64,000 nt of DNA, taken from contig QPGO01000039.1 in the NCBI GenBank assembly GCA_008632985.1, positions 1 to 64,000 of the forward strand. Reading direction: 5' to 3'. Below, in pieces: positions 10,201 through 64,000 of the stretch (within the stretch, counting starts at the first letter, position 1; every line of letters starts with the position of its first letter). The position numbers and the translations under genes are program-made. This stretch comes from Psammoneis japonica. Lineage: Eukaryota. The notes beneath the pieces were generated by a model. That model did not search any database and was not told the DNA's origin. It saw only the letters and a list, made by a program, of their open reading frames with translations.

Positions 10201-10949
10201 TCAGAGGTGCACAAATTGTCTGTTGTTGTTTGCACATGTGCACTCAGACACACTCAGCATGTGCATGATGTCAAACTTGCCACCACAACATTCATCAATT
10301 CCCTGGAGATGAGACAGGCAGTGCAGACATGGTGATGCAAATGGTCTCAGCTGGCTCTCTACAATGCAGAGACATTGTCTGCAGACTGTCAAAAATGTGG
10401 GTGGCGCGGTGTGCAAGTCATTTCTGTGGGACACATTTCTCGCTGATTGAACAACCTGATTGGGACATGTCAGTGCAGTGGAGTTTGATGTGTCCACAAT
10501 GTGAAGGGGGGTTGCAACAACATTGGCATCAAAGAGACAATGATTGCAGATGCCGCTCCTTCAGCGCACATGGTGCTGCCTCCACTGATTGAGCCTTGGT
10601 CATTGTGTCAATGTGGGAAGGCACTGACACGCCTGCCACGGGAGAACAAAATGCCAACACAATCATTTTGATGGTTTCTGACATCACACCAGCTGTGGAG
10701 TGAGTCCTGTTTGGCGCAAGTGAGGACTGAGCAGCACACTGTGCACTGGCACACTGAGCCTGACCATCCGAATGCATGGCACTCATCAAAAACTTGACAA
10801 ATGACATTTTTGCTGCCATCCTGTCCTTTCGTGGGGAAAGGCAATGACGCACCAAATGCTGCCTGGGAAATTCATGCCTGCCGTGTTGAGTTCACACACC
10901 ATGATGAGCTTGTGCTCGTGTGATTTTTGCCATCATTTTGGTGGCTTGT

Positions 10950-12960
10950 GACACATCATGGACTTCAAAGTGACCAAGGAGTCCTGCTCCTGTCACCTTT
11001 GCTGGAGTGATTCTGAACTTGTCCGCACTGCTGGAAGGGATGACAAAAAGCTTGTCTCAATCATTGAAGTGAGGAACCCAGCAGCCACTGTGCACTTTGC
11101 CAAATCAGAGAAGCAGTGCAGCTTCAGTGAGGGGGCTTTTGACTTGGCCACCTGCCAAACAACAGATGATGTAATTCCTTGACATCAGCTGTTCCCTCCA
11201 CCATGACATCATCTCCTCCTTTCACAATTCTGATGACATGACATCTGCCTTGATTCCGACGGGTTCCAGTCCTAGGTGGGACTTTTTGTGACATTGGGCC
11301 CGTAGAATTCTACGTGCGAACTCCTTAGTAAAATTATTAAGCAATGGATATATGAATGATCGCCAACAGAAAAAGAGGCAATTTTGCGAACGTATCTCCT
11401 CCTCCACACTTGAAGTACATTCTTTACAGTATGCCCGGGTATATTCTTTAGACATTAAAGAATATACCCAGCGCATTTTTATTGACATAAGTGCAGATAA
11501 CAGAAAGCCTTCGGCTTCGCAAAACAGGCAGTGTGGAACAGTTTTTTATAATAGAACACGTAGAAATGTACGTGCGAAACATACGACGGATGATAAAAAA
11601 TAATTATGTCACAGTTCAGTAGTACGAGGTCCCACCTAGAGCTGGAACACGTCTTCCAATCTTTGGGCTTGCACAACTTTGGACTGCTGATTTCAGAAGG
11701 GAAGATGTTTTGCATCGCATTGCAAAATTCTTCTGGGACTTCACATTCATTCAGTCTCACCAGCTCACCAGCACAGTCAAATTCCAGAACCGGTTTCTCA
11801 AAAACAATTCTGCCTGCCATCAGACACAATCTTTTGTGAAGCATCAGAGTGCTTGTCTCACAACAAGAAAAGCAGTCTGCCTCAATCACCCACCCAAGAA
11901 AGGGCGGGTTCTTGTTCTTTCTGGCTGCATGGCAGCAAAGGGTCTTTGTTCCATTCACACCACAAGTTTCAACAAGCAGCTGCACAGCTCCCTCACTGAC
12001 AGTGGCATGTGTTGTGAAACCATTTTCTTCCATCACAAAGCTGTGCAGGTGTGTTTTTGCTGCAGGTGACCTTGTCCTGCTAGCAAATGGAAGTCAAGGA
12101 TGTCTCCAACTTTTGCCAAATCATTTGTGCTGTCCCCAGTCACTCTTTTGGTTTGATCTTTTGTGAAACACACCATCCAACATGCCAACTCACCAGCAAA
12201 GAAATGTTTTTGAGCGACGATTGTCTGATGGTGGATGCAAGTTTCAAGGTCCCAGCTCAATGTCTTTTTCAGGTGCTTGTCAGCTGTCTTTCATTGTTTC
12301 CCCCACTCTTTCTCAAAAACATCAGAGTTTTCAACAAACAGGGGGGATGCAGATCTGTCTTCATTCACAAACACTGCAAGCAATTGGTCTGAGGTCCATG
12401 AGTGTTGAGCAAAACAACTGTGGAGCCCCTTCTCTTGCATGTTTTTGAGCTCGTGTGATGCAACCGCTTGATCTTGTTTGAGACCACAAGGAATCCTGAC
12501 TGATTCATCCCTGCTTTCCACCAAATCTCAGCTGCTCCAAAGCCTCATTGCAGCCATCCCAAGTGACTCCATTGAGCACAAGTGCATCTGCATTGGTGCT
12601 TTTAATGGCATTGTCCAAGTCTTTTCTCTTGACAACTTGGTCCTCTTGGCAACCTGTCTGATCTGCAAAGACTTGCACTTTGTTGAACCCATTCTGGTCA
12701 AAATGGAACCACACAATTTGCTTCCCTTGTTTTGCCAAACACAGCAGTCATTTTGTGCCACAATGTTGATGACTTTCCTGCACCCAGCAGACCATGGATT
12801 AATCCCAGCACACTTGCCTTGGAAACTTGGTCAACATGATTGAGCAGTTCACAACACTGGCACAAAACAATGGAGCAATTGCTTTCATTTGTGTGGCCTG
12901 GTGCTGTCGTGTTTGGGAATGGGATGGACACAAAATCTTCATCTGACCTCTCTTTCACAG
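10950..12960 (-). pseudogene. Crinkler/CR-type NTPase + restriction-endonuclease-fold gene, eroded and MITE-disrupted
   Basis: Motifs in order: IHGLLGAGKSSTLW (P-loop), IVWFH, LVLNGV, KHFFAG..ACWM, NPPFLGWVIEAD, KPKDW|NQGRCHVI (WNQGGYD, split by the MITE), WQVAKSKAPSLKLHCF. Multiple stops and frameshifts. Confidence 0.7.
11258..11653 (+). mobile_element. Young MITE (396 bp), about 25-bp TIRs, 4-bp TSD TTCC
   Basis: gacgggttccagtcctaggtgggac ... gtcccacctagagctggaacacgtc. TTCC at 11254-11257 and 11654-11657. Retains TA and CG, unlike its flanks. Confidence 0.92.
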
Positions 12961-13583
12961 AAGCAACAGGGCTTGTCTCCCTTCCACTGTCCCTGCCATG
13001 CTTGCTGCCATGGTTTTAGAGGCTGTCATGGTCATCCCTCGCTGCTTGCACTTGCTCAACTCTCTTCTTCTTGGTCTGTCTCATGCTCATCTGGCCCTGA
13101 GTTCAAGTCAGTTGCGAAGTCCATCATTGACCACTCCCCAGCATTTGGAATGAACAAAATGCTCAAACACTGACAAATTGCATGCGTGCACAAAATTCAC
13201 ACATGCAGACCTCGGCAACAGTGTCTGAGCTCTTTCTCCCTCCCAGATTTTCAATGTGCTTTTAGTTCATTCAAGCTGGCTCAAAATGTTTTTTGCAAAT
13301 GTGTCAAAACATCAACAAGCATTGAACTCAACAAGAAGGTGGCACATTTCTCCCACCATTTGCAGCTGCCCTTTGACCTTGGCTGCTCTGTCACACCAGC
13401 TGCCTTCATGCCTGGGCTTGCCAAGTTGCGAAGGCTCAAGAAAGGACCAAACACATGTGGAGTGAGTGACTCAAAGAATTGATCTGTTGTTTTTGGGTCT
13501 CAAAGAACATCCAAAGGTGCGCTGCAGATGTGCAGGCCAGCTTCCTTGTGTGTCAAGCTTGTTTTGGCCTCGAACAAAAACCA

Positions 13584-14700
13584 TCACATTGTTTTTGATG
13601 ACTTCAGCCCATGGTCAGGTTCTTGCTCAATCATTCTCAAGTCCACCACAATGTTTGGATGAGTTGACTCTGCGGTTTTGACAACCAGGAGCTCACCAAC
13701 GGAATTGTTTGCATTGGGGGGCACAGATGGCCTGGCAAGAAAGACAGCGGTTGCCTCTTTGGTGCTGCTGGTGCAACAGGAACAGCAACGGTTGTCATGG
13801 AAATGCTGTGCACACCATGGCTGCAGGCTGCACCTTGTGAAATTTGTGAAGTCTTGAATGGGAGCAACAAACATGGCAACACAAAAGAAACTGCATGGGT
13901 GATGGAGCCAGCTTCAATCAAGACAATGACAACCAGGATGGGCCAAGACAAGCAAAAGCATGTGAGATGCCAAAATCCATGCCAAAACACCTGACAGTGC
14001 ATCTTTTGCACATTGGACATCATTGAACGTGGCTCAGTTGCTCGTTGTTGATGCACCTTGACGCAAATGTGTGAGCTGCAAATGACTGTCACAAACAAAA
14101 TCACAGTGCAAATGGGAGTCATGAGGTGCATTGTTGGATGCCTGGAATCTTTGGGAGCACAACACACAACAACATCTGCACCATGTTTTGTGGTGCCAGC
14201 CAGCACCAAACCCAAGCTGAGTGCAAGCGGCAGCCCAAAGAAGAAGACCCAGCCCAAGTGAACAATCCAGCCCTCTTTCCAGACACAGGGTGTGATGAGG
14301 TTGCAGCAGATTGCAAGAGACAGGCTCAAGAGTGGACGAGACATGAAGCCAAGTTGAGTGAAGAGCCCAGCGCTGTGCAAGTGGTGTTGTTGCCCCAAGC
14401 ACCACACACACCATTGTCTGCTGGTGCTGGCAAAGTTGTCAAAGACCAAGCCACGGAGGCCAAGCCGCCATCACAGCTCATGGTCAAAAGTGGGCAGCAT
14501 TGTGTTGTCCATCCACTCTTAGATTTTTGGCAGATGCTGGCAATGACACACAGCAAGCCCCAGCACTGAAACAAATGGAAAGCTTTGAGTTCAAAATGCA
14601 AGTGGAAAATTGTTCATCTCAAAGGCAAGCACATAAACCACAGCACTGGACCAGAACAACAACAGAGACAGACTTGCAAAAAATGACATTGCCGCTGACC
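13584..14700 (-). pseudogene. Eroded duplicate of the GPCR-like gene (7TM exon + intron; ectodomain deleted)
   Basis: Colinear with 6835-7930, with frameshifts and donor GTAAGT->GCAAGT. Flanking homology extends over about 13300-15185 versus about 6480-9130. Confidence 0.92.
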
Positions 14701-16159
14701 AAAAATGCATGAAATGGGTTCCAAGTCATGCAAGAGATGCTTGAGCTTGGCTCACTCATGTGGCTTCACTGCATTTGTGCTGTCCATCAGAAGTGCTGTT
14801 GGGCAAGACCTCTTCCCCATTGGTCATGAGCGCGAGTCATGAGTTCCAGGCTCCAGCCTCAAGCAACAACTGACATCATGTTGGGGGATGCTGGTGAGTC
14901 ATTCTCTGGCTGCAGGAGCCAGCCACACAATGACAAGATCTCCAGGTTTCAGATTGAGCGGTGTGGTTTCAAATCATCTCACCCACATCAATTTGTGCTG
15001 GAGCATCTGCAAGAAGCTTGTGAAAAGCCAAGACAAACTTGTCAAGCAAAGTTTTTTGGCGCATCACTTGCCCTTTTTTTTTGCACTGCCGCTGATGCCA
15101 GAGTGAAGTCTGCCCCCAGCACAAGAGCTGGATGGAAGCTGTGGCAAGAAAAGCACCCTCAGCATGTGTGCTTTCTGCAAAGTGGTGGAACATGAGCGCC
15201 GGCGCTCTGCACTCCCTGGCGACTGCATGTGGTGCTGCTCCTCCTGGAAAAACTGAAAGAGCAGAGCTTGCACATCACAGGGGGGTGCCCATCCAAACAA
15301 AGCTGCTGAGCATTGGCAAGACAGGCTCCTTGCAGCTGGAGCTCTGCCCAGCATTCATTTTCTTCAAAGGGGGCAGCGCCAGACTTCAAACTCAGTGGCA
15401 GCAGCAAGTGGTGTGCGATGCAAGGCTGGTGTGGCTTCTTTTTTGAAGAGAGAAAGAGGAAAAGAGGTTTTAGTCATGGCGGCCATTGGGGGTCACTGGG
15501 CTGGTGTGATCATGCCACGCAGACTCTGTGTGGCACGCAGCATGCAGCACACAGCACGCACCCTGTGGCCAAAACACACAACCACCAACCACCCACATGC
15601 ACTTTCTCGCACCTGGCAGCCATGGCACTCCTCTCCCAAAGAAGATCTCAAAATGTGTTGTTGTCGACAAAAACGCGCATGTCCCTGCGGCCGACGCCTG
15701 ACCACACACTTGTGATCGCACCGGCACCACTAATTCGTCGTAAAGGAACAGTGACAAACCCTTCTTGCATGCAAACATCATCTGCGTGAGCCATCCCCTT
15801 GACAAGCTCGTCTCACACAATCAAATGCTGTACAGGTGCCGTAGATGGAAACTTTATGTCGTAAAAAATCATTTAACAAAAGGGCAATGGTCAGGGAAAC
15901 CGAATGACTTATTGTGTTCCTGATCGCAATTAGTTCAATAAATTATTTATTTTTAAAGTATATATGTAGATTGAAAATGACTTATAGGATTTAGTTAAAG
16001 GCCCAGTCATTCTGAGATCACTTCCGCTGTCAAGACAAGCTCATTTATCGCCCCCCCCGGAGGATCGCGTCAAGCTGTGTCTGTGTCTCTCGTCTCTCAA
16101 CTCTCAACCTGTTCAAAAGGAAGGGACAACAAAAAACAACTGCTCTATTGTAAACCACC

Positions 16160-18170: not shown

Positions 18171-21100
18171 TTAAACAAACGCACGGTACGGTCCACTTTC
18201 CTCCTCTTCGACTAAGGCGTTGGCGAATACAACCGTACCTTCGTGAAGAACACCTGAAACCTTGCATGGACGAAGCATGATTTTATCATAGACAACCATA
18301 TGGCCATTGATTATAGCTGAATCCATGATTGTTTCATCCCCGAATGTAACATAGGGAAAGTCGTAAACGCGATATCCAAAAAGTAGTGCCCGACCCTCGA
18401 ATTTCGCACCCAGAAACCGAACAACCCAATTGAAAAACGGAGTTCCCCAGAGCAAAGGCAAGAAAGACAAAGCCTGGAGTGCGGCAGTAGTACTCAAGCA
18501 AACCCCAAAGAGCGGCACACTCCAGGGCCCAGTTCTGTTGGTGGGTATCAAGTACGTTAGTCCCTGAAGCATCCGTAAATAAAAAACCCATAAGGCAGTT
18601 TGAACCGCAAACAGAAGCGCAAGCACTGGGATGGCAGTGGCCGACGACGGATTGAAAACTGACACCCACAGCTCATATGTTGGAATGAAGCTTGCAAAAA
18701 GTAGCACAAGCTGCAAAGCATATAGCCCGGCCACAACAGCTTCATCTTGAAGAACAGAGCAACGCGATGGCAACTTCAATGACTGATACAGGTGATCTCT
18801 AACAACGTTTCTTTTCACATGAGTGTGGGGCTCAATGACCGTTCTTGAAATAGAAACTCCGGGCTCAAAATGCACAAATGCGCCAACACTGCTCTCCTTC
18901 ACTTCACTTTGATGATAGCATCCGTCCTTCTTCGAACCAAATGCAGCGTTAGACATAAACGAACGTTTCACGCTTATCAGGTCAAGTTTCGACGGAGAGA
19001 ATTTGAACACGTAAAACTTCGAAAACACATCAATGTCCATCCCAAGCAGTTTGAAAAAGCAGTTCCAGATCCTCGAGTTGAGCGAAACTACAGATAGCGT
19101 AAAGATGCTAACTCGAAAGCGATAGTCGACGATCCAATCAGCGCCTGTGCGCAGAGTGCTCGTTTTCTGTCCTGCTTTTCGTCGGCCAATCAGCATCCAT
19201 TTCAGAGGAACGACCAAAGCCAACGAAAAGACCGAGTATAACAGAATAAGCAAAAACCAAAAGCTGAGACTGGCATAGCGCCAACTTGATTGAATGAGGA
19301 AATCCAGACACATTCGTCCGACAAAAAACAGTCCGGCGAATAAATAAAGTTCTACCAATAGCCAGCCCACTTTGATGATAGCGAGAGTTCCCCTGCCGCT
19401 AACTTGGGGCTGTGACGTATGGCCCGCATTGAATCCAGGGTTTCCCCTCACAACAGTGTTGTCACTTATTTGGGCTCCCTCAGGCACTACACACGAGTGC
19501 TCAACGTGCACGCCTGTTCCTACCCGGACTCCGGGACACAGCATTCCCTCGATATTGCTTTGCTTTCCAATGGAAATAGACCTGAATCGAAGCGTGGGTC
19601 CCGTGTCATCCTCCCAGGGCCCGAATCGCCGACATCGAATATCGTGATCAACGGAGACATCTTCCATAATTGCTACAAGATCAAACTCCCTCACGAAGGC
19701 ATTCAATTGCACAGAAGGGTGGATCTTGGCTCCCATGAACCAGTAGAACAACCACAAAAGTGGCGTTTCACGGACAAATTGCCCAATCCACGTCTCCCAA
19801 GTATGAACGGCTCTGTCGACCAACCACCATCTAACATACGTTATCGTGTGGTGTCTTATTTCTTCCTCACGATATCGACCAATCACTACCCATTTGGCAA
19901 CGATAACCGACAACGAAAAACTTAGCATCCAGGTAGGAATCACCAAGGGCAACCATACCCATCTAGCCTCGTTCCCGCCTGCATACTCAAAGATGAACAC
20001 AAAGCTGCTGCTTCGAGATAGAAGCTGGCCCATAAGATACGCGTGAACGGCGGATACGGCAAGAAGAAGTAGCAGCAGTGCCACACCCATTGCCTGCAAC
20101 AGCCCCAATGTAAAAGATGACACAACGAGAGAAGAACGCTGTTTCAGGCCCGAAAGTTTTGTTGGTAGAGGCGTGCCGCAATTTTCCGATATAAATGTTC
20201 TGAGTTCAGCAGGCGTCGGATAGAGCTCGAAACAATTTGGCGGGAGATCGACCGCAAGCTTATCCATTATGGATTGCTTTATTTGGACGGCAACCATGGA
20301 AGACAAACCCATTTCCTCCCACGTTTGCCCTGGTCCAAATGTATCTCCAAAGTAGCTCCTGATAATGTCATAGAGGGCTATGGGTATTGGATCCGTCGGC
20401 TGATTTGCAGTTTCCTTAACCGCAATTGCTCTCGTGTCCTTACTCTTGCTGGGACCTTGATATACGCAAAGGATGAATAAAGTACCATCATGGAGTTTTT
20501 CTCTCGTGGTACGCCTTCGGATCTTACCACTTGTCGTTTTCGGTATTGTCCTTTCCGCAATTGCTACAACATTTGATGGAATCAATCCTACCGCCTGAAC
20601 CACGGTCGAATGTACCAGCTTGCAAATTTCCAGTGCCATGTCAGCGCTTTTTTCCCTAATCTCAAAGACAATTTCTAATGTCCCATCTCCATCAGTGTCG
20701 TTGGAAGAAAAGGCCGCGACACAACCACCCCGGATGGCAGCCGATGATGTGTCCTGAACCACGTATTCAATATCTTGTGGGTAGTAGTTAACTCCTCCAA
20801 CAATAATCAAGTCTTTCATGCGGCCACAAATGAATAAGTAGTCATCTTGAAAGAAGGCAAGGTCTCCCGTACGAAGATAATCTGCATTGGAGTCGTCTTC
20901 AGCGATCCTTCCTTGGAAAGTCTCTCGTGACTTTTCTTCTTTGCCGAAATAGAAATTCCTTGTTGATGGTCCAGCTAGCCAAATCTCTCCTGTCTCTTCA
21001 TCGGTACATTCCGTACATGTCATGGGATCAACGATCTTGATGGTAAGAGAATGATGCATGTCCTTCCTCCAACCACTTGCTACCAAAGGTTGCTCCCCTG

Positions 21101-22917
21101 GAGTCCGTGGGGTCGACAGATGATACCCATGATAGGAGCAAACACCGACCACAGTTTCTGCGAGACCGTAAGCCGCAAGAAAGTACTCTTTGCGAAGTTT
21201 ATGCTCGGAAAGAGCCTCCAAGAAGAGGTCTCTTGTATCAGGCCGAACAGGTTCTGCGGCATTCGTCAGTCCGTGAATGCAAGATAGATCAAGATCTTGA
21301 ATCATGCGTCTTTGGCTTCTGCTTCCTTGCTTGGCTTCCATGTATTTGCGAGCCACCAGGCGATACGCAAAGTCAGGAGCCATGGCACCATGAGCACGGG
21401 TCTTTGATATCAACTGGAGCCAAAGCAAAGGTTTCTCTAAGAACGCAAGGGGCGACATCATGTGCTCGCGCCATCCTTTTACAAACGGCACCACATATGC
21501 ACAAACAAGCCCAGCGTCATGATACTGCGGCAGCCACGAGCATCCAATAAGATCTTCTGGATCTTTACCATCTGCTATAACCTTGCGGGTAATGTCGTCA
21601 CAAATTAGGATGATATTTGCAGATAGAGACGCAAATGATATAGCAACTCCTTTCGGTTCTCCTGTGCTCCCAGACGTGTACTGAAGGAAGGCACTTTTTT
21701 TTTCAGCCAATGGTTCCCGGGCAACATAAACGTTGTCAGCGACTGCCTATCGAGAGACGGCAACTTATCGGACGAAACACTTACCAATCCTCGGGTAGTA
21801 ACGTGGTCTCTTGGAACACTTTGTTCTCTCGCCATCCCATCAGGGCTCCTGCCAGTCTCTTGATTGTACCTCGTTTCCTCAAAAGTTTGTCGGTGATTTT
21901 GAACGGGACTGTTGAACACCAAAGATGTTTGCTCTTTGACTTTGGGTTAAGGCAATCAGCCGTTTTCAGCATGTTAATGGTCGAATCAGTTAGGATCAAA
22001 GCTGGATTGCAATCTTGAATGACGTTGTTGAGCTTTGTCAATGACTTGACGAGAGGAAGGCCTGGAGGATACACAAGAACTGCCGTCACACCAGCCCTTA
22101 AGCATCCTAGAAAGCAGGCGAAAAAATGAAGGCCAAAAAAGTAGCAGAGGATAACTCGATCACCTTTCTGAAGTCCCCATTCAGCTCGCAAGTGGTAAGC
22201 AATAACACCGGCGTCATGCCATAATTCGCCATAGGTGTAACTCTCTGTTTCATTGCCGTTCTTATCGTACCAAGAAGCATACACCTTGTCTTTCTTCCTC
22301 TTGAGAGTATCATTCACTAGTTCAAAGAATGGAATGTGTGTCCCTTCTTCGGTGGAGAACAAAGGGCCATTGTCTGTTGCTGAATCATCAGCAACTATCT
22401 CCTTTTGGGGAAACATGGAAGTTCCCCTCTTCTCACTTTGATCCCAACCATCTGATTCCTCCATTTTCTCGGGTTTCTCCTCGACTGCTTCCGCTGACGT
22501 TTCATCAGGTACAGCAGCTGATACGTCATTTACGGTCTGCTCTTCAAGGGCAACCAAGATAGTACCCTTTGCCTTTCGGACTTTCAAGGCACTAACGTCG
22601 GTTTCTTCCGTGACGACATGAGCTTCGCAGGCGACACAAAACGGAATATCCACCATTGGGGTTGCCGGTTTATCAAAGGATTCACCACCAGCTGACAAGT
22701 TGGATGTACTGGGTCCAGTCAAATCATTATCATTAGAATCGGTGCGTTTCACAAGAGACGTCGAACACGAAGGACAAACGGCAGTGTCGAGCATAACATA
22801 GCTCTCTGCCAGTTTCTCGTCAATCAACTGCTGAATAGCCTTCTTTCCCATGGGACCATCGTCACTTTCCTCCGATGACACCCGAGACAACGGCGGTGAA
22901 CTCGACACTTCCGCCAT
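18171..22917 (-). CDS. NRPS-like enzyme: N-terminal Zn ribbon + fatty acyl-AMP ligase-type A domain + carrier domain + Pls/PosA-type TM/hexapeptide C-terminal region
   Basis: Intron 21694-21784 joins PED to CAFLQYTSGSTGEPKG. A-domain motifs SWLPQYHDAGL, AYGLAE, YLRTGDLAF, GRMKDLII, PKTTSGKIRR. Carrier Ser in MGLSSM. Repeated TM + (M/L)GAK(I/F) beta-helix units. Confidence 0.88.
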
Positions 22918-23630
22918 GCTCTAAAAACACACTGTTGCAGCCAGAGAAGTGAGAAGGTGTGAAAAATGAAAAATGCATGATGTTAGCATGATATGACCAC
23001 CGTTATGCAATTTGAAACATGTTCTGCTGGTCGTGGATAGGGATGTTAGGAAAATATAAATTACCAAATACATATATACACCGAAACAGCTATTCACCAT
23101 GAAAAGTCGATAAACGATGGTTGATGTATGTAACAGTCAACTTCTGATAACATACGAAAATACACAAAACGGTTATTTGTTATTTGGTACAATTTTACGC
23201 ACATATATTATGTACGTAGAAAGAGTACCAACATTTATGTACATCATGGTCTATCATCTGTCAACACGCAAAGCCCGCCATAGACGCACGAAAATGCATT
23301 TTATGGTGATTTGCTCATTGCAACAGATGTTTGCATTGTAAATGTTACACACATGTCTGACTCTCGAATAAACAAGAACAAAGGGAAACAAAAACAGCCA
23401 TGGCTTTCAGCGGCCATGATGGTCCCCTCTTTTCAACCCTGTGGACAATTGAGGGGCATCATGAGGACCGCAGCATTCGACAGCTCCCCCACAGTCGACG
23501 ACCTGTGAGCCGCCCATGATGAAAAACAATTGCTGCAGTCTGTGGTGCACTTTTAAACTTCACCACATGGACTGCAGCTTTCAGAAGCAACAATTGCCCC
23601 ATTTTGTTCCCAATTTGATGCTGAGGACCA

Positions 23631-34131: not shown

Positions 34132-35475
34132 ATGGCGATGATTGGAAGTGCTGCTGTGCACAACAAGAGACTCAAATGCCATGTCAAACGGACCATACTT
34201 CTTGTAACATTGTGTGTCATGGTTGGCATAAAGTTTCTAGTCGACAATGAGCTGGTTCTGCCTTTTTTCTTGTCGAGAGAAGAAAGTAATGAAGTTTTTC
34301 GTCCCAACACCACACAACTCGTCGCTGATGAATTGCCTCGTTGGCTCCAAACGTACACGTCGTGGCATGCTTCTGAGCGATCCAATATAGATGCAAAATA
34401 TCTCGTGGCTTCCTGTGTGGATGCCCATTGTGGTGGCTTGGCGGATCGATTACGAAACATGCCGTTTTTGTTGTTGCTGGCTAATCGCACGCAGCGCATA
34501 CTCTTGATTTGGTGGACACGACCGTGTGGGTTGGAAGAATTCTTGGTGCCAAGCGGATTGTTGGATTGGAGAGTCAGTGGGACTGCTGCAATATCCAAGT
34601 GGGAACTCCTTACAAAAGCGAGACGAAAAGGCGCACCGTGGATTCATGGAAAATTATCGTCCAATCAAGTAATGAACTTGGTGGAAAACACACATGCATC
34701 GGAACAAATAATATTTTGTCAGTTGAGCATAGATCATTATCCTTATTTTGAAAGGCAGTACAACAGTGGCATGAATAATACTACAACAAACAACAACAAG
34801 CGACTCTTTGGAGATATTTTTCATGCCCTCTTTACTCCTTCACCTGGAGTGTTGAAACTGCTGCAATCGACCATGTCGGACCTTGGCCTTGTCGAGAATC
34901 ATTACGTGGCTGTCCACTTGCGAGCAAGATATCCTGCCCTGGTTGAAAACTATTACCATGCTACAAGTTCCACTCGACGAAGCGTGGATGCAGACGGCAT
35001 GTTGTGGCAAGGTAGAACCAAGGAGCTTGTAATCAACTCGTCCATGCATGCCATTGCATGTGCAAGTCAATTGGCACCAAACAATAACACTGCAGTCTAT
35101 TTTGCATCCGACACCAATCAAGCCATTCGACACGTTACAACGACAATACCAAGAGTTGTTGGAAAAGTGACGGATTCGGAACGCCATCATTTGGATCGCA
35201 ATGATTATCGAATTGCTGGATTCTTGTGGAGAACTCCACCCCGTGCATTTTATAACGTTTTTGTTGATCTACTTATTCTAAGCAAGGCAAAGTGCATAGC
35301 AATTGGACTCGGGGGATATGGAAAATTTGCAGCCATGATGGGTGGAGATCAATGTACCGTGCATCATCAGCAAATACCGTCCACTCCTGGCGATACATTT
35401 TCCGCACCATGTTGGCCAAAAGACGAAACGGGGTTTCAGAGGGAGAGGTTGGCTCTACAGATTGCTGACTTATGA
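34132..35475 (+). CDS. Fucosyltransferase-like (O-FucT/NodZ/GT23-like) type II membrane protein
   Basis: TM anchor, CGGLADRL, YVAVHLRARYP, VYFASDT, FVDLLILSKAKC..G.GGYG. The upstream ORF extension lies in eroded DNA. Confidence 0.75.
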   Translation: MAMIGSAAVHNKRLKCHVKRTILLVTLCVMVGIKFLVDNELVLPFFLSREESNEVFRPNTTQLVADELPRWLQTYTSWHASERSNIDAKYLVASCVDAHCGGLADRLRNMPFLLLLANRTQRILLIWWTRPCGLEEFLVPSGLLDWRVSGTAAISKWELLTKARRKGAPWIHGKLSSNQVMNLVENTHASEQIIFCQLSIDHYPYFERQYNSGMNNTTTNNNKRLFGDIFHALFTPSPGVLKLLQSTMSDLGLVENHYVAVHLRARYPALVENYYHATSSTRRSVDADGMLWQGRTKELVINSSMHAIACASQLAPNNNTAVYFASDTNQAIRHVTTTIPRVVGKVTDSERHHLDRNDYRIAGFLWRTPPRAFYNVFVDLLILSKAKCIAIGLGGYGKFAAMMGGDQCTVHHQQIPSTPGDTFSAPCWPKDETGFQRERLALQIADL

Positions 35476-35960: not shown

Positions 35961-36199
35961 GGCTGACTTTGAAGTGAGCTTGTGCGAGTTTCTTGAATGT
36001 TAAGAACGATCTTACGAGAGAAGTCAATGGCTCTCAAGGTGTGTCTTCCTGCATCATCAGAGCACACGTTGCACCTGCTTTCTCACAGTGATGTTTTTCC
36101 CTTTTGCATTTTTAAAAATTCTGTGGTAGCTTTCCATCAGTTTGTCAGTGGTTAAGGAAACTACCTGGCAGTACGCGCGCGTGAGAAGTTCACGTGCGA

Positions 36200-36920
36200 C
36201 GTCACCCAGTGGCGCAGGGGGAGGGACGGACGCTGGGCAATGGTGGAACGGAGTCATGTGGGTGGGGAAGGGGATGGATTTCGAGTTGGGGTTTGATGTT
36301 TGCAATTGTAGTTTGGTGGAGCAGCGGGTGAGTTGGTCAGCGAGCGATTTGGTGGTCGCTGGGCTTGGGTTTTGCAGACCCCATTGTGGCGGTGTTGAGG
36401 AGTGGTGGGTCAGGCCAAAGCGTTCGGCAGAGATGGTTTGCCAAGTGGCGGAGGCAGCAGGGAGGATGGCAGACGGGGATTGTTGGGTGCAGGCATGTGC
36501 GGCATGGGCAGCTGGGTGTTGAAAACAAGTTTCGGTGTTCCAAGGTGGGGCGGGTGGAGCGGGTGTGGGGAGGTCTTGGTTGGCGCCAAAAAGGAGGCAG
36601 TGGGCGAAGCATCCTGGTGCTCCCAGGTGGTCAATGGCAAAGGGGATGAGGTGGATGCCAGCGTTGTTGAGAGCAGATGTAAGGGTTGCTTCATGTTGGG
36701 TCTCGTGGGTTCCGTTGAACTTCCGTTTTGTGCTCATGTGGTGTGCCTCGGTGTGAGGGTTGAGGGTGGGGGCAGGCAAGCCAGGAGCAGGCAATGGAGG
36801 AGGTTTGGGGACGGTGACGTCAATGGCAAGGTGTTGGTGGCCAAGGGGGGGATGCAGCAGAGGTGGCTGGAGCAAGTTGGATGCCTGCGTCAGCAGGGCA
36901 TTTGAGGGGGTGAATGAGGT
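36200..36920 (-). mobile_element. 3' restriction-like endonuclease segment of a CRE-like non-LTR retrotransposon (inverted)
   Basis: The minus strand reads KCPADAGI (eroded RPADVGI) ... HLAIDVTV ... LIPFAIDHLG. Confidence 0.75.
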
Positions 36921-38295
36921 GCGCCACCCTCACCACATGGGTCTGCACCCACTGCCCCGAGCGCCTTCGAGAATGGAAGCGCATCAAAGCTCAGGCGATT
37001 GAAGACAACACCGACCTGCAATCTTTCCACCAGCATCTCCAAGAGTGGAACCCCCAAGCACCATGTGTCCAGTGTGCCCGCACTGTGAATGGTCTCCACC
37101 AGAAAATGCTGCCACCCAAGACCTCCCTGAGGCAGTCTGAGCTCACCTGCGGGCCGAGCACAAAACCCCAGACCTGCGTTTCCTGCCACAAGACTTCCTC
37201 TCCCAAGCCAACCTGCACTCGTGCCACATCTGCAACTCCACCCACCACCTGCACCTCTGCCCTGGCGACCTGCGCAACCACATCGCCCACCACAACCCCC
37301 CTTGCACCGAAGCAAACTCTGCTCTCAAGGCCACACACCTGCCCCATGGCACCGCCTGACCCGCCACACTGCAGTGGCTCCACGCCGTTGAGCTTGCACC
37401 CCCGCCCTTTCATGCCTCCACATGCCGCAAGCCATCTCCCTCCACACTCCGTGAAGTCTTCACAGCACTGCATCACACCCTCACCTGGATCATCGAATCC
37501 ACCAAACCCCTGCAACTCGACTCCGACACCTCCGCCCCACCCCATGAATGCACGTCCACACCCTTCTGGAAGTTGCTCCTTCTCTTTGAAGCACTCATCC
37601 TCGCTCCGCCTTGCCGCTCCCCCACCGCAAATCCCAAACGCCACCCGTCTGCCTCCTCCATTCCCTCCACATGCCTCAAACTCTTCCGACAAGGACGCAC
37701 CCGCAAACTGTGCGATGCAACATGCACCAACACCCAACACTCCGCTCCCAATGCCCATGCCCCTGACTTCTCCGCTGCCACTTGCTGCCACACAGCTCAA
37801 GCATCCGCAGACGCCGACAACTTGGGCGCGGCATGCCGCCGAGTCACCTCTGGCCTCCCAGTCACCACCATTGATGACACCCGCCTCCAGCTCATCCACA
37901 AACTGCACCCGCCCCGCGCACCACACCCACCCCAAGCACCCACCACCAACACACGACACCCTGCACCTCCCCCATCCCCTCCGTGCATCACCGACGACCA
38001 CCTCCTTGCCGCCCTCAGCAAATGCAAACCTGGCACCGCCGCCGGCCCATGCGCTGACTCCACCAACCTCCTCAAAGGCTGTGCTCTCTACAAAACCAGC
38101 ACCCCCACACAGCCACAACTCCGCCCGCACCTTGCCACCTTCAAAGAATTCCTGACAATCATCCAAACCAACTCCGCCCCTCCTGACATCCAGCCACTTG
38201 TCGCCACCAAGTGCTTCGTGGCACTCCACAAAGACCCTGCCAACCTTGACAAGCTCTGACCTGTTGGCTGCGGCACTGCCGTCTGACGCACAGCC

Positions 38296-38689
38296 GACGC
38301 GTTCCAGCCCCAGGTGGGAGCTCACAGTGCTGACGTGTGACACAATTGTTTTTTTCATCCATCGCATGTTTCGCGTGTGCATTTCTACGTGTGATCTTCC
38401 AAAAAATTGTTCCAGATTCGCCATTTTGTGAAACCCCAAACGTTCCATCCAATGAAATTGTGGGAACATTGATGTGCCCAGTGCATTCTTCAATGTCTGA
38501 AGAATGTGCTGCGCTGAGCAAAAAATGATGCACTTCAATCATGGATGAGTTTGTGCACTCGCAAAATTGCCTCATTTTCTGTTGGCGATCATTGATGTGT
38601 CAATTGCCTGACAATTTTACTGCGGAGCTCACACGCAGAATTCTGCGGGCCCATGTCACACGGATTCCCACCTGCGTCTGGAACGCATC
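38296..38689 (-). mobile_element. MITE, same family as 11258-11653, reverse orientation, TSD AGCC
   Basis: gacgcgttccagccccaggtgggag ... ttcccacctgcgtctggaacgcatc. AGCC at 38292-38295 and 38690-38693. Confidence 0.9.
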
Positions 38690-39129
38690 AGCCAGCACCC
38701 TCACCATGAATGCCTCCTCCCCAATGAACAATTTGGCATGGGCATTAAAGGTGGCCTTGACTGCCTCATGCACGCCACTCACGCTAACATCGAACGCTGC
38801 CTCAACAACACCATGCCAACCCATGCCTTCCTTGCTCTCAACCTCTCCAACTTCAACAAATGCTCACACGACACCTGTCGCGAGCTCCTCAACAACATGC
38901 CCGCCTTCAAACACCTCACCCCCATCTTCGACCTGCACTGCAACACACCAAACACGTGCTGGCACCATGATCCCAACGGCCTCTGGAGCTCCTTTCCCCA
39001 ACCCGAAGGATTCTCCCAGGGATGCCCACTCGCCCCTCCATTTTCTGCCTCAGTCCTCAGTGTTGTCCTCAAACAACTCAACGCTGAACTCTGCCAACGC
39101 CTCCCATCCTCCAATGTCACATCAACTGC

Positions 39130-39519
39130 GATGCGTTCCAGCCCCAGGTGGGACTCCGTGTGACATTGGGCCCGCAGAATTCCACGTGCGAGCTCTGCAG
39201 TGCAAGAATTTAATTGATGGATGTGTTTGTCTTCAACATCAAATGAACGGCCAAGTTTGTGGTGCAATCATGCCTCTTGCCACTCAATGTTTTTGCAAAT
39301 TTGCCTGCCCTGCGCAATTCTTAAGACATTGTAGAATCGCGCTGCAACAAAAAATGTCAAAAGTTGTTGGACGGATCGCTCAATGAGTGCACCGTAAAAT
39401 GACACAAAACATCAAAAAAATCACGTAGAAATCCATGTGCGCAACATACGACGAGATTCAAAAAACCATCGATGTCACAGTTCAGCAGTGCGAGGTCCCA
39501 CCTGGACCTGGAACACGTC
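39130..39519 (+). mobile_element. MITE related to 11258-11653 (shared ends, different core), TSD CTGC
   Basis: gatgcgttccagccccaggtgggac ... gtcccacctggacctggaacacgtc. CTGC at 39126-39129 and 39520-39523. Confidence 0.9.
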
Positions 39520-40989
39520 CTGCCTCCCTCATCAATGACACCAGCATTTGGCTTCCATGCACCGAACTGCCGTGGTTCCCAAACCGCCTCGAGGAATTGG
39601 GACCTCAACACAGCGTCCGCCTCAATCGCTCCAAGACACACATGCTCACCTTGATTGCCAGCACCAGCCCCCTGCCAAACCTGTCCCCAGCAAGTGCCGA
39701 CGCCCTCCACCAAGCCCTGCACTTCCTTGACCCCACTGACGATCCCACCCTGCACCCCAAAATCACCACTGGCCTCCGCTTCCTCGGCCAACCCATTGGC
39801 AGCCCCACCTTCGCCCGCACCTGCCTCGAACAAAAAGCCAACACCTTCCGCACCAACCTCGACAGACTCTCCTCACACCTCCACGACACTCAAACAAAAA
39901 GCTCCCTCTTCCGCACCTGTGCCATCCCGTCACTCCCACACCTCCCAGTGTCTGATGTCTGCTTCAATTTCAACCCAGACAACCCACAACCCCTTTCTTC
40001 CTGGACCTCACCGTTCCAACAGGAGGTCCAACGTCACTGCGATGCCTGCCTGCAACATCTTACAGTGCAACCACTGCCACTGCCATCACACGCCATGCTC
40101 CTCACCCACCTCCCCGCATCCTCCGGCAGCATTGGTTGCCGATCAACATCAGCCTCCACCATCCCCTTTCTCGTCTCCCAACTCGCTCGTTCCTTTCGAT
40201 GCGCAACACGCGGACCGACCACAGGCCAGGACAGCCCCCTCAAGCTCCCACCTTTCTGCGCTTGCTCCCTCCGCACCTGGGCCACCTCCCGCCACCCCTT
40301 GCGCCTCTGTCAAGTCTTTCGACACTGTGGCAAAGCTGACACACACACCCTTGACCCCCCCCACCTTCCCTGAAAGCCTTCGTCAAAACACACCCGCTCC
40401 ACAACCTTTCACACACCCTTTGTCATGCACACTGCAACCGCACGCTCAAAGACCTCCACCTGCATGGACCATCGCACGTCACCCATGTGCTCCCATCCCT
40501 TCTCTCTCCACTCACAAGTCTCACACTCCATTCACTTGCTTGCACACCACCCCAACAATGCCTGAAACCTGAGCAGCTCCGCCTCATGCTCCAACGCAAA
40601 TTGCAGCTCCCCATCTTTGCGGCTCCCCATCTCACCTCACCAACCCGACTCCACCCCTTGCCCCTCTTGCCAGGGCACCATTGATCCATGCGGGTGCACG
40701 TGGAGAGGAGGACATGTCAACTGTCACAGTCAAGCATTTTCATGCTGTGGGATCTGACCCCCTGTCCCATCAGGAAATTGTGTTTCATTGTGAAACAGTC
40801 GCCCATTTTCCAAATGAGAGTGCCCACCCTCTGTCCCCACAAAACCTGCAAATAAAAATTGTTTGTGTTGCAAACATTCTGTTTTGTCACTTGAATTTAA
40901 TTCAAATGACGCTGGCAGAGACAACAACATGTGAGTTTGCAGCAGCAACTGCAGCTCTCTTTGTCAAAGTGCTGCTGCTGGCAGCCACC

Positions 40990-48604: not shown

Positions 48605-51026
48605 ATGAAAGTGCTTCACGTTGCGCTTTTCGCGCTCATGGCAGCCCCGCTGCAGGGTGCTGAGACAGCTGGCCTTCGTGGAACGGGTCCGCAAAACAAC
48701 AGTCGCTTGCTTGCGCAGCACTTTGACAGTGTGAGCGTGGCAGGCTCGATCCATGGCTGTGTCGTAAACAACAAGCATGTTCGCTTTGTCGATAGTGCTG
48801 AGGGTTGCAACGCCTACGAACACTACGTGCACTTGAGTGCTTCTGATCTTAGTGGAGAAATCAGTCAGCCTCAAGAGAAGACAGGCATCCGTGGAATCGC
48901 TATGCAGTACGCTCGCCTTTTCACTAGTCGCCGTCATCTTGGACAGGCGTCACCCTCGGTATCGCATTCAGGTCCCTCGGAATCGCATTCAGGTTCGGGA
49001 CCAGTGAGTTTACGGGAGATGTTGTTCGTGTCTGTATGACGAGTGAGAAGTACATTCGCATGGTCATGTCTTCAAGCGCGTGCAGCTCTTCGGAAACCTA
49101 CATCAGCTGGGAAGTAGACGGAGAGACAGGCGACGACGGAAAGGATGGTAAAGACGGAAAGGATGGTAAAGACGGGAAGGACGGCCTTGACGGAAGGATG
49201 GTAAAGACGGAAAGAAGGGACCAAGAGGAGATGCCGGCCGTGATGGAAAGGACGGCAAAGATGGAAGGGATGGTATCGATGGAAAGGATGGGAAAAATGG
49301 AAGGGACGGCCGAAACGGCAGAGACGGAAGGGACGGCCGAGACGGCAGGAACGGAATGGACGGCCGAGACGGCTCAAGTGGCTCGAACGGTGACCACGGA
49401 GATGACGGCAGAGACGGCAGGCACGGATTCAATGGAAGGGACGGAAGAAGCGGAAGAGACGGCGTGGATGGCGCGGATGGAAAGGATGGCACGGACGGCA
49501 AGGATGGCAAAGATGGCAAGGACGGAACGGATGGTAAGGACGCCACCGATGGAAAAGACGGAAAAGACGGTACAGACGGCAAGGACGGCAAGGACGGCCA
49601 AGACGGCCAGAACGGCAAGGATGGAACGGACGGCAAAGATGGTGTCGACGGAAAGGACGGCCAGGATGGCCAGCACGGCCAGGATGGCAAGGACGGCTCC
49701 GACGGAAAGGACGGTACCGACGGAAAGGACGGCAAGGACGGAAAGGACGGTTCAGACGGAAAGGATGGTACTGATGGCCAACATGGCCAGGATGGCCAGC
49801 ACGGCAAGGATGGATCGGACGGAACGGATGGCAAAGACGGCACCGACGGAAAGGACGGCGTTGACGGAAAGGACGGTAAAGACGGTACCGATGGCAAGGA
49901 CGGCAAGGACGGTCAGGATGGCCAGCACGGCCAGGACGGCCAGGATGGCCAGCACGGCCAGGACGGTCAGCATGGTAAGGATGGTACAGACGGAAAGGAC
50001 GGTACCGACGGAAAGGACGGCACCGATGGCCAGCACGGCCAGGATGGCCAGCACGGCAAGGACGGAACGGATGGCAAAGATGGCGTCGACGGAAAGGATG
50101 GCACTGACGGTAAGGACGGCAAAGATGGAACGGATGGTAAGGATGGACAGGACGGACAGAATGGTCAGCACGGCCAAGATGGCCAGCATGGCCAGGATGG
50201 CAAGGACGCCACCGACGGAAAGGACGGTAAAGACGGAAAGGACGGTTCCGACGGAACAGATGGTAAAGACGGAAAGGACGGTACCGATGGTGAGGACGGC
50301 CAGGATGGTCAGCACGGCAAAGACGGAAAGGACGGCACGGATGGCAAAGATGGCGTCGATGGAAAAGATGGTGTTGATGGAAAGGACGGCAAAGATGGCA
50401 GTGACGGCACCGACGGAAAGGACGGTACCGATGGCCAGCACGGCAAGGATGGCAGTGATGGTACCGACGGCAAGGACGGCCAAGACGGCCAGAACGGCAA
50501 GGACGGAACGGATGGCAAAGATGGCGTCGACGGCAAGGACGGTCAGGACGGTCAGCACGGCCAGGACGGTCAGCATGGCAAGGACGGCTCCGATGGAAAG
50601 GATGGTACCGACGGAAAGGACGGTGCAGATGGAGAGGACGGTGCAGATGGAAAGGACGGTGTCGACGGCAAGGACGGCAAGGATGGCAAGGACGGCAAGG
50701 ATGGTAAGGACGGCAAGGATGGCGTTGACGGCACACATGGCGTTGACGGCAAAGATGGCGTTGATGGAAAGGACGGCAAGGATGGCGAGGACGGCAAGGA
50801 TGGTGAGGACGGCAAGGATGGCAAGGACGGCAAGGATGGCAAGGATGGCAAGGACGGATCGGATGGTAAAGATGGCACCGACGGAAAGGATGGAAAGCAT
50901 GGCAAAGATGGCGTCGACGGCATGGACGGTGAAGATGGTGTCGACGGAAAGGACGCCGTCGCTATGTCTCCCAGCGAGGATTCGCCTGAAGAATCGCCCA
51001 AGTTCTCGCCCAGTCATTCACGTTAG
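48605..51026 (+). CDS. Secreted collagen-like protein with about 200 Gly-X-Y triplets (GKD/GTD/GQD/GQH/GVD)
   Basis: Signal peptide MKVLHVALFALMAAPLQG. G-X-Y run about 49117-50955 with one -1 frameshift near 49194. The link between the N-terminal ORF and the repeat region (intron or frameshift) is unresolved. Confidence 0.8.
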
Positions 51027-51329
51027 GGACTCAGTGTTCATTTTATAGGAAGAAAAGCTGCTGCGAGGATTCAGGAAGACTTCTAGCTATCTTAGAAATA
51101 CAGTAGCAACAGAATTACATGCACGCTCTACCCGTTTTTTCCCGTAGTGTCATGCAGTGTTCGTGTTCGCTCTCTCGTGGATTCGCGGGAGTAGCAGGTA
51201 AAATTGTCGTCGCCTTTAAGCATGAGAGCAGCACATGCACAAGGTTCCCCGAGCCAAGTGTGTCAACGCTGTACATCAGTGTACCGGTAAGCTGCATCTG
51301 TGATGGCATAAGAAATGTTGCACAAATCT

Positions 51330-58668: not shown

Positions 58669-59817
58669 ATGTCTTCGTCAGTCCATAGAACAAAAAGACC
58701 CACCGTCTACCATGTGCTGGATGTGTGGGCGATTCCGCCAGAAGTCTACAAAATTGCAGACAAGCAAGAGCGTGCTCGCGTTATTCACAGATTGATTCGA
58801 TCTTCTACCACCAAACCCCTCGGATTGGACAAGGAGATTGCTCCCATATCATTTGCGGATCATGCCATGGTCTTATTCGGGTTGTTTTTATGCATGGGAG
58901 GTCCTCTTTTATGGATATACTGCAGCATGTATTGGCTACTTTTGGGATCACCGTCGTTTTCGTTCCTGTTGCGATTTGCCCACGTTGCCGCTGCGTACTG
59001 TGTATTGGCATTTCATCCCTTACCATCAAGAGATTCGGGCTTTATACACGACTTTATGACCAGCCGATTCACGCTTGCTCTCTACAAGTACTTCACCTAT
59101 CGATTTGTCTGGACAGATGATGCCCTAGAACATATTGTCGAATACATCAAAACGAAGGAACAATGTTTTATCGGCGCAGGTCCTCCTCATGGAGTGCTTC
59201 CCTTCGCCAACCTTCTCAGTGTTCCCGCCATAAACACGGTGCTAGGAGTCGACTTTGTGGGGACTCCCGCTCCCATTGTGTTTTCAACGCCCTTTTTACG
59301 CTACATGACCATGTATCCGTTGGTCAGTGTCGACAAAAAGTCCATGCTTTCCGTCTTGCAAACAGAGCACAAAAATGTTGGCGTCGTCCCGGATGGCATT
59401 GCTGGGATATTCCGCCAATCCCGTGATCGAGAGGTTGTAGCCTTGGCCGATCGCATGGGAATTGCCAAGTTGGCTTGTTCGTATGAAAACATTGCGATAA
59501 TGCCAGCGTACTCGTTCAACAACACGGGTGTCTTCTCGTCGTGGTGGGATCCCTGGCACGTGATGGAACGGATCAGTCGCAAACTCAAGGCATCCATCTT
59601 TTTCTATTGGGGACGGCTTTACATGCCCATTCCTCATCGTGTTCCCATCGCCATGGTGTTTGGAGATCTAGTCGTGCCGCCGGAAACAACAACGAAACCG
59701 CCCACACAGGAAGAAATCGCAGCCGTTCACAAGCAACTGCTGGACTCGATTCGTGATTGCTATGAGAATTTCAAAGAGTCATTAGGGTTTAAAGATAAGG
59801 AGTTGCAATTTGTTTAG
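58669..59817 (+). CDS. DGAT2/MGAT-family acyltransferase
   Basis: Two N-terminal TMs, YKYF, PPHGVLP (HPHG variant), VVPDGIAGIF, RMGIAKLA, PAYSF, GR..PIP..P...VFG. Confidence 0.9.
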   Translation: MSSSVHRTKRPTVYHVLDVWAIPPEVYKIADKQERARVIHRLIRSSTTKPLGLDKEIAPISFADHAMVLFGLFLCMGGPLLWIYCSMYWLLLGSPSFSFLLRFAHVAAAYCVLAFHPLPSRDSGFIHDFMTSRFTLALYKYFTYRFVWTDDALEHIVEYIKTKEQCFIGAGPPHGVLPFANLLSVPAINTVLGVDFVGTPAPIVFSTPFLRYMTMYPLVSVDKKSMLSVLQTEHKNVGVVPDGIAGIFRQSRDREVVALADRMGIAKLACSYENIAIMPAYSFNNTGVFSSWWDPWHVMERISRKLKASIFFYWGRLYMPIPHRVPIAMVFGDLVVPPETTTKPPTQEEIAAVHKQLLDSIRDCYENFKESLGFKDKELQFV

Positions 59818-63442: not shown

Positions 63443-63527
63443 AGAAATCAACAAGTATCTACACACTACTTAAAATCTAATCTATGTGCTATAGAAGCCT
63501 ACGAGTTCTCTCTATTGAAGAGTGGGC

Positions 63528-64000
63528 GCTAGGAGTCGACTTTGTAGGGACGCCCGCTCCTATTGTATTTTCAACGCCCTTCTTACGCTACATGACCATG
63601 TATCCGTTGGTCAGTGTCGACAAAAAGTCCATGCTTTCCGTCTTGCAAACAGAGCACAAAAATGTTGGCGTCGTCCCGGATGGCATTGCTGGGATATTCC
63701 GCCAATCCCGTGATCGAGAGGTTGTAGCCCTGGCCGATCGCATGGGAATTGCCAAGTTGGCTTGTTCGTATGAAAACATTGCGATAATGCCAGCGTACTC
63801 GTTCAATAACACGGGTGTCTTCTCGTCGTGGTGGGATCCCTGGCACGTGATGGAACGCATCAGTCGCAAACTCAAGGCATCCATCTTTTTCTATTGGGGA
63901 CGGTTTTACCTGCCCATTCCTCATCGTGTTCCCATCGCCATGGTGTTTGGGGATCTAGTCGTGCCGCCTGAAACAACAACGAAACCGCCCACACAGGAAG
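63528..64000 (+). pseudogene. 5'-truncated near-identical copy of the DGAT2 gene (runs off the window)
   Basis: Matches 59241-59713 with 12 substitutions in 473 bp by my manual count and no indels. Lacks the TM and PPHG region. In-frame ATG at 63484. Confidence 0.85.

Follow-up and report, generated by a model that had tools for sequence, protein, structure and literature searches.

In the genome of the diatom Psammoneis japonica, the copies of a small transposable element lose their TpA dinucleotides approximately 9.5 times faster (95% interval 7–14) than their CpG dinucleotides, and very probably they do so through a targeted, enzyme-dependent mutation process. The element is a non-autonomous transposon with terminal inverted repeats (a MITE), which is present in several subfamilies and in hundreds of copies. 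A first-pass annotation of one stretch of this genome had proposed, from a few copies, that the TpA process is at least as fast as the loss of CpG; the counts presented here go well beyond that proposal.

The stretch, referred to here as the window, comprises positions 1–64000 of its contig in an assembly of 91.4 Mb and 597 contigs. It is a mosaic of genic DNA, with observed/expected (o/e) ratios of about 0.5–0.7 for TA and about 1 for CG, and of blocks with ratios of 0.01–0.05 for TA and 0.1–0.3 for CG. A long gene built of 9 bp repeats at 48928–51048, which encodes collagen-like G-K-D triplets (Pfam Collagen, E 9e-95) and has a frame shift near 49190, is uneroded for both TA and CG. The segments 59238–59537 and 63525–63824 are a recent duplication, 97% identical, uneroded and located in TA-rich DNA. 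A large gene on the minus strand (18171–22920), split over two frames, presumably resembles an acyl-AMP ligase with a carrier domain and membrane repeats.

Three MITE copies lie in the window, all with terminal inverted repeats and a 4 bp target duplication. The copy of subfamily A (396 bp, 11258–11653, plus strand), flanked by TTCC at 11254–11257 and 11654–11657, has lost 0 of 34 TA and 0 of 17 scored CG. It sits in a fully eroded block (10258–12653, no strand assigned), the flanks of which have a TA o/e of 0.03 and a CG o/e of 0.14–0.23. The earlier description of an uneroded copy inside an eroded block was accurate, as the 34 TA (o/e 0.99) are found between 1 kb flanks with two TA each (o/e 0.03). 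The copy of subfamily B (390 bp, 39130–39519, plus strand) has terminal inverted repeats of about 25 bp and CTGC on the plus strand at both 39126–39129 and 39520–39523; CTGC occurs only once in two further copies of its host element (L285 and L286), which confirms the insertion. Compared with its own subfamily, 21 of its 26 ancestral TA have become CA or TG and nine of its 28 CG have become TG or CA, and zero other substitutions were counted, with 12 polymorphic columns left out. The copy of subfamily C (394 bp, 38296–38689, minus strand, AGCC duplicated on both sides) keeps two of 30 consensus TA (23 are now CA or TG, five are other) and 15 of 26 CG; it represents a diverged branch and its background count is therefore inflated.

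The B and C copies are hosted by a decayed retrotransposon-like element on the plus strand (approximate limits 36300–40600; TA o/e 0.02–0.09, CG o/e 0.52–0.68), for which the RVT_1 match is weak and under the Pfam cut-off (E 0.026). In run X1, one contig links 36111 to 40694 with 31 other letters in between, and the depth of unique pieces inside this interval (27–38) is about half that of 35000–35255 (57). The host with both MITEs may be present in a single haplotype, or there may be a paralogous flank without the host. Positions 36120–36950 are a high-depth repeat that retains several TA near 36125–36175 and carries a motif like the subterminal repeat of the MITE; it is possibly another small element.

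The first-pass annotation had treated these copies as an age series in which TA disappears before CG. The strings that it quoted are indeed present at 11611–11653 and 39477–39519, where three TA differ (CA, TG and TG) and both CG are retained, and its comparison of the left ends, with two TA gone and the CG kept, also holds. This 43 nt segment gives too favourable a picture of the retention of CG, in view of the nine CG that the 39130 copy has lost overall. The copies do not form one series, since they belong to three different subfamilies (consensus identity 66.9% for A–B and 79.0% for A–C, with B and C similar at the ends only), and hence the 11258 copy is not the ancestor of the 39130 copy. 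Nor do the counts show the quoted pair to be young and old: the differences from consensus outside TA and CG number three in the TA-rich copy and zero in the eroded one. Of the three TA changes quoted, two lie within a pentamer for which the 31 near-intact B copies are polymorphic (11 with the ancestral form, five with the form of the 39130 copy and 15 with other forms), and these two may therefore descend from a donor that was already edited. The remaining site, in CTAG, is TA in 30 of these 31 copies and was thus changed in place.

To follow the process across the genome, copies were chosen by exact patterns lacking TA and CG, which gave 119 matches for A and 304 for B, and 0 for the reversed-pattern controls. 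The 100 A copies listed and the first 84 B copies listed were analysed, each together with roughly 1.5 kb of flanking DNA. A copy was excluded if it exceeded 6 gaps or 14 transversions; this removed 23 A and 17 B copies, which belong to other branches or are nested or truncated, and left 77 of 100 A and 67 of 84 B copies, in total 144 reporter copies, in a sample that by its exact-pattern picking favours less diverged copies. The elements measure 390–396 bp, and the two sides of the 4 bp duplication agree in 61 of the 77 A and 58 of the 67 B elements. TA-rich copies (12 for A and seven for B) supplied the ancestral state; in the B ancestor, six columns were reset and the 12 polymorphic columns were excluded. 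Similarity searches were also run, but as they return the best 40 of 1094–1610 candidates in order of similarity to the query, they are biased; a correlation between TA loss and flank CG, with a rho of 0.77 in the A top-match sample, all but vanished among the pattern-picked copies (rho 0.01) and was rejected. Column 89 of the A consensus (about window position 11347), which is neither TA nor CG, is hypervariable (G 43, A 19, C 13 and T 2 among the 77 copies), and its variation is independent of the other diagnostic columns. MITE copies of several subfamilies cluster or nest within 1–2 kb at L139, L153, L154, L201, L208, L233 and L239, much like the window pair at 38296 and 39130.

When the collected copies were scored, 75 of the 77 A and 62 of the 67 B copies proved to have lost a larger share of their TA than of their CG, far more than chance would give. 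Pooled over all copies, 1901 of 2592 TA and 246 of 1362 CG were lost in A, and 736 of 1724 TA and 167 of 1815 CG in B. Among unsaturated copies, defined by 15–85% TA loss, the losses were 742/1082 TA versus 65/573 CG in A (32 copies; hazard ratio TA : CG 9.6, bootstrap 7.6–12.6) and 443/772 TA versus 70/818 CG in B (30 copies; 9.5, bootstrap 7.0–14.2). Across successive erosion classes the ratio was 6.5, 7.9, 7.4, 11.4, 9.1 and 8.0 in A and 6.2, 24.5, 9.7, 11.2, 6.8 and 3.7 in B, where the outliers 24.5 and 3.7 rest on two CG events and on one copy, respectively. The idea that TpA is lost before CpG therefore survives as a large difference in rate but not as two phases, the ratio being approximately 6–11 in most classes; its rough constancy indicates that both processes run concurrently and that the apparent order is kinetic. 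Copies that have lost more TA also tend to have lost more CG (rho 0.72 and 0.71).

The background in the same unsaturated copies is low: C>T outside CpG was seen at 5/3872 positions in A and 7/3237 in B, A>G outside TA at 40/5184 and 34/4676 (0.7–0.8%), and transversions at 22/9056 and 24/7913 (0.24–0.30%). In relative terms only, the TA rate per strand is about 60–75 times that of non-TA A>G and 200–450 times that of non-CpG C>T. CpG decay is 20–45 times the non-CpG C>T rate in these copies, with C>T at NCG reaching 7.8–10.0% in A and 3.7–5.6% in B versus 0.0–1.2% elsewhere, and we infer that it reflects the deamination of 5-methylcytosine. In the diatom Phaeodactylum tricornutum, CG methylation of transposons, with DNMT5, has been reported (PMC9998398), and a mutation-accumulation study describes a 2.21-fold GC>AT bias with CG as the most mutable dinucleotide (PMC6604790). 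It has also been reported that methylated cytosine is not always hypermutable in algae (PMC11884799), which calls for caution about the 5-methylcytosine step.

Several findings fix the direction of the TpA change. At 34/34 sites in A and 21/26 sites in B, CA and TG are each present in at least two copies; as both are found at the same sites and TA is one step from each, TA is the ancestral state. A dead paralogue (13577–14698, minus strand) of an intact gene at 6828–7931, 76% alike, served as a polarity control: it keeps 0 of the 47 TA of the intact gene (20 are CA, 17 TG, three CG and seven other or gap) and 5 of its 54 CG, and so gives the same direction without any consensus. These genes lie in a tandem pair (6533–9128 and 13336–15182, 6.8 kb apart), of which the membrane-protein gene is intact and the other partner fully eroded. 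Among changed TA, with gaps left out, 1901 of 1924 in A and 736 of 749 in B became CA, TG or CG. Double hits to CG are rare (10 in A and eight in B, versus 1891 and 728 single hits), which indicates that one hit removes the substrate on both strands.

The copies have also eroded independently of each other. There were 64 patterns among 65 eroded A copies and 33 among 33 eroded B copies, so that the TA-less state is not a fixed consensus shared by a subfamily: eroded copies are nearly all unique, with both outcomes at all A sites and at most B sites. The proposal that erosion accumulates after insertion is upheld, and it proceeds copy by copy. Particularly telling are copies L017 (17/34 TA and 0/18 CG lost, 0 other changes), L026 (24/34 TA and 2/17 CG lost, 0 other changes) and L029 (26/34 TA lost), in which other changes number only 0–2. 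Near-identical eroded pairs are few (among them L125/L131, L097/L146 and L177/L178); transposition of partly edited donors has happened, but accounts for a minor share only.

Read as A-to-G, the target is 5'-TAY-3' in preference to TAR, with a weak spill-over to CAY, AAY and GAY. A>G rates were 49.4% at TAC and 44.4% at TAT versus 21.7% at TAA and 20.7% at TAG in A, and 27.4 and 32.0% versus 10.6 and 14.3% in B. In copies with less than 40% loss the gap is four-fold (TAY 44/491 versus TAR 7/323 in A; 68/946 versus 14/814 in B). With a 5' base other than T, NAY was changed at 153/5464 positions versus 30/6852 for NAR in A, and at 78/5290 versus 19/5021 in B; this weak 3' rule in the absence of a 5' T suggests one agent of graded specificity. 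Such a sharp context preference supports an enzyme better than rate alone would. Of the TA that remain, ATAT accounts for 0/590 in 110 kb of eroded flank versus 156/1808 in 20 kb of TA-rich window DNA (both strands), and TTAA is 5.8-fold enriched among those left in eroded flank. Retention at A sites was 0.36 for YTAR, 0.37 for YTAY, 0.29 for RTAR and 0.15 for RTAY; as YTAR is no better kept than YTAY, a longer context or structure matters, and site class explains the variation in part. The relation of site retention to the distance from CG is inconsistent between the subfamilies (rho 0.08 in A and -0.47 in B). Hits are distributed between the strands without clustering (chi2/df 60.6/69 in A and 29.1/37 in B), and same-strand runs of neighbouring hits were not above the permutation expectation (325/812 versus 335 expected in A; 113/218 versus 118 in B). 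A lost CpG at a distance of up to 15 bp did not raise TA loss (odds ratios 0.79 and 1.08).

How far a copy has eroded may depend on its age, on its position or on both. TA loss follows a neutral clock loosely (rho 0.45 in A and 0.31 in B), and singletons per kb, from intact to more than 85% eroded copies, were 0.86, 3.08, 1.56 and 5.56 in A and 2.27, 2.56, 2.47 and 7.07 in B; counts are small, and the clock clearly sets apart only the class with more than 85% loss. A floor of assembly errors or of donor-lineage changes could hide a true age order. Nearly all copies, intact or eroded, lie within TA-poor DNA. Near-intact copies are rare in TA-poor, CG-rich flanks (A 0/27 versus 8/50 elsewhere, p 0.045; B 2/19 versus 29/48, p 0.0003), although the thresholds for the flank classes were picked after the data had been seen and six settings gave p values of 0.007–0.19 in A and 0.0002–0.006 in B. 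CG-poor flanks were found for 7/8 intact versus 7/69 other copies in A (p 1e-5), a result that does not repeat in B (11/31 versus 9/36, p 0.43). The window pair, with 9 flank CG per kb around the intact copy and 41 around the eroded one, fits this association of near-intact copies with CG-poor flanks. Position may therefore set the erosion rate besides age, and these counts hint that some mark tied to CG governs how fast erosion proceeds locally; alternatively, flank and element may have eroded together, or insertion targets may have shifted over time. As a test of spreading into TA-rich flanks, flank TA was found to increase only slightly with distance from the MITE. Among mismatched target duplications, about 4/25 look like TA edits, as judged by eye.

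As to the chemistry, we consider the chances evenly balanced that adenine is deaminated to hypoxanthine, by an enzyme of the TadA/ADAT kind, inside silenced, methylated chromatin. The MITE thus serves as a built-in reporter of the mutation process. After insertion, each copy independently undergoes changes of TpA to TpG or CpA, at single bases and on either strand; this would take place within silenced and probably CG-methylated domains. A zinc-dependent TadA/ADAT-type deaminase would turn the adenine of TAY into hypoxanthine, which would be poorly repaired and copied as G, while CpG in these domains would decay ten times more slowly, giving the appearance of TpA first and CpG later; partly edited copies can still move and start new branches. 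Spontaneous deamination of adenine is slower than that of cytosine, and thus cannot outrun CpG decay. TadA-derived DNA editors have been reported to favour 5'-YAY (PMC10188366), with YAY preferred over YAR in engineered TadA editors (PMC12528748); this matches the 3' pyrimidine rule and supports the deaminase reading. Against a true YAY preference, CAY is no better a target than AAY in A (4.1/2.9% versus 4.3/2.0%). Amphioxus ADAT2, a natural DNA editor, is described as preferring GAA (PMC10354150), a context among the slowest here (0.5%), which counts against an ADAT2-like deaminase. Counting against deamination more generally, A>G and a T>C on the opposite strand look alike in sequence data, and same-strand clusters are absent, though runs might be left by an enzyme that uses single-stranded DNA.

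This symmetry of the two strands is what gives weight to thymine as the substrate, a reading that we regard as unlikely. Here an enzyme would modify T in 5'-RTA-3', for example to 5-hydroxymethyl- or 5-formyluracil, which would pair with G and yield T>C; oxidised T is known to miscode. T>C at RTA fits all counts as well as A>G at TAY, single and unclustered hits on two strands suit a mark written on double-stranded DNA, and the genome has several genes for DNMT4-like pyrimidine methyltransferases, but the literature searched gave no known T-modifying enzyme with a preference for RTA, and a genome search for TET/JBP (PF12851) gave no match, in a weak search in which no control genome matched either. 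Another adenine mark, such as methyl-adenine at TpA in silent domains that miscodes or is processed to G, would equally fit the strict requirement for TpA, the symmetry and the absence of clusters. The 6mA of other eukaryotes is of the ApT type, and since TAC is hit as often as TAT in both subfamilies, such a mark could not be ApT-type 6mA; we consider this reading quite improbable.

It is still harder to accept that error-prone patch synthesis, with the WA hot spot signature of a polymerase eta-like enzyme, produces A>G at TA during the repair of deaminated 5-methylcytosine or in late-replicating chromatin. The co-variation of TA and CG loss and the mildly raised AAY rate are in its favour, but AA contexts reach only 0.0–4.3% versus 10.6–49.4% for TA, there are about ten TA events per CpG event and no excess of them near lost CpG, same-strand tracts are absent and transversions are scarce. 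That there is no mutator, and that the TA-less copies go back to TA-less masters or lost their TA to selection or GC-biased conversion, is barely credible. Inheritance from edited donors did occur at a few sites, as seen in the B pentamer and in the patterns shared by near-identical pairs, but as the main cause it is refuted by the presence of both outcomes at the same sites, by the unique patterns, and by L017, L026 and L029, which lost half to three quarters of their TA almost without other change; a general GC bias is contradicted by the low rate of non-TA A>G in the same copies.

The genome was searched for candidate enzymes. Profile searches gave nine matches to PF00383 and five to PF14437, which include dCMP deaminase-like, TadA-like, ADAT2-like and other small deaminases, and two genes with an A_deamin domain (PF02137; L276 and L277). 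A TadA-like gene (L252) and an ADAT2-like gene (L255) are present, with putative activity on DNA. All of the genes found with these three profiles are apparently housekeeping genes, with no dedicated deaminase among them and none that could be singled out. An endonuclease V gene is present, which counts against poor repair of hypoxanthine; the lack of a genome match to PF02245 (methylpurine/hypoxanthine glycosylase) counts for it, although only 4/14 controls were positive, so that a missing MPG match is no proof of absence. PF00145 gave 27 matches, which include intact DNMT4-like C5-methyltransferase genes (L262, L263 and L269, one with a chromodomain frame upstream) and duplicated copies that are TA-eroded (L266–L268, on C297 and C301, with 4–6 TA per kb); the DNMT4 label follows resemblance to the genes in PMC9998398 and not a tree. 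For DNMT5 the same profile gave only partial matches and no confident identification.

A more far-reaching reading, which we put forward tentatively and with some doubt, is an 'inverse RIP' in diatoms: a natural DNA adenine editor that prefers TAY and is steered by CG methylation would erase TpA from whatever DNA enters marked chromatin, at ten times the speed with which the mark decays. It would be off where CpG is exhausted, and would spare insertions that arrive later in fully eroded blocks. If true, this would, together with the observations in B. natans, point to an old genome defence of the SAR lineage and to a source of a natural deoxyadenosine deaminase. Independently of this, the 144 polarised reporter copies set the rate at about 9.5 times that of CpG decay and establish the motif (TAY) and the single-hit mode, figures that make the hunt for the enzyme testable. 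A practical consequence is that diatom transposons will be badly misdated by divergence from consensus unless TA and CG sites are removed.

Genome defence by mutation in eukaryotes is known as C>T, in RIP, APOBEC editing and CpG decay. Like fungal RIP, which involves RID/DNMT4 and DIM-2, the process described here destroys repeats by one type of transition in a dinucleotide context, in a genome with DNMT4-like genes. RIP makes TpA from CpA, whereas here TpA is consumed and C>T at CpA is only 0.2–0.9%. Moreover, same-strand runs are absent, many near-identical copies are intact and, in the duplicated gene pair, the intact gene has not lost its TA. RIP was therefore rejected as the cause, given the opposite direction seen between the intact gene and its dead copy and the lack of strand runs. 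The decay of CpG in CG-methylated transposons, with CG>TG/CA well above other C>T, is a close parallel, but explains only the slower component and not the TpA loss. TadA and ADAT2 acting on DNA (ABE7.10, ABE8e-YA and amphioxus ADAT2/3) share the A>G outcome, and the engineered editors share the preference for a 3' pyrimidine; unlike these editors, the process here has a nearly obligatory 5' T, and C confers no advantage.

In the literature searched, which left most subscription papers outside its coverage, we found no report of TpA hypermutation in diatoms; a TpA-targeted process of this kind was found reported in only one unrelated alga, Bigelowiella natans, in a 2026 preprint (Mettrop et al., 10.64898/2026.01.13.699255). 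According to the preprint, two regions of integrated viral DNA change from AT to GC exclusively at TpA, with about 6e-7 events per site and generation, a local rate about 1000-fold above that of the rest of the genome; the activity is described for only some cell lines. TpA-poor windows are enriched for transposon domains, and the preprint suggests transposons as further targets and proposes an adenine deaminase (10.64898/2026.01.13.699255). The two systems have in common that A>G/T>C occurs almost only at TpA, on both strands and in silent or foreign DNA, and that it leaves TpA-poor blocks rich in TpG and CpA. The preference for a 3' pyrimidine and the spill-over to NAY are resolved here, whereas the main text on B. 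natans gives no flank preference, though its supplementary mutation table may. The organisms and the targets also differ, with integrated viruses in a rhizarian on one side, and a MITE, a retrotransposon-like element and a dead gene copy in a diatom, a stramenopile, on the other. Finally, unlike in B. natans as described in the preprint, erosion in P. japonica is near complete (TA o/e 0.02–0.03) and is paired with a decay of CpG at about a tenth of the rate.
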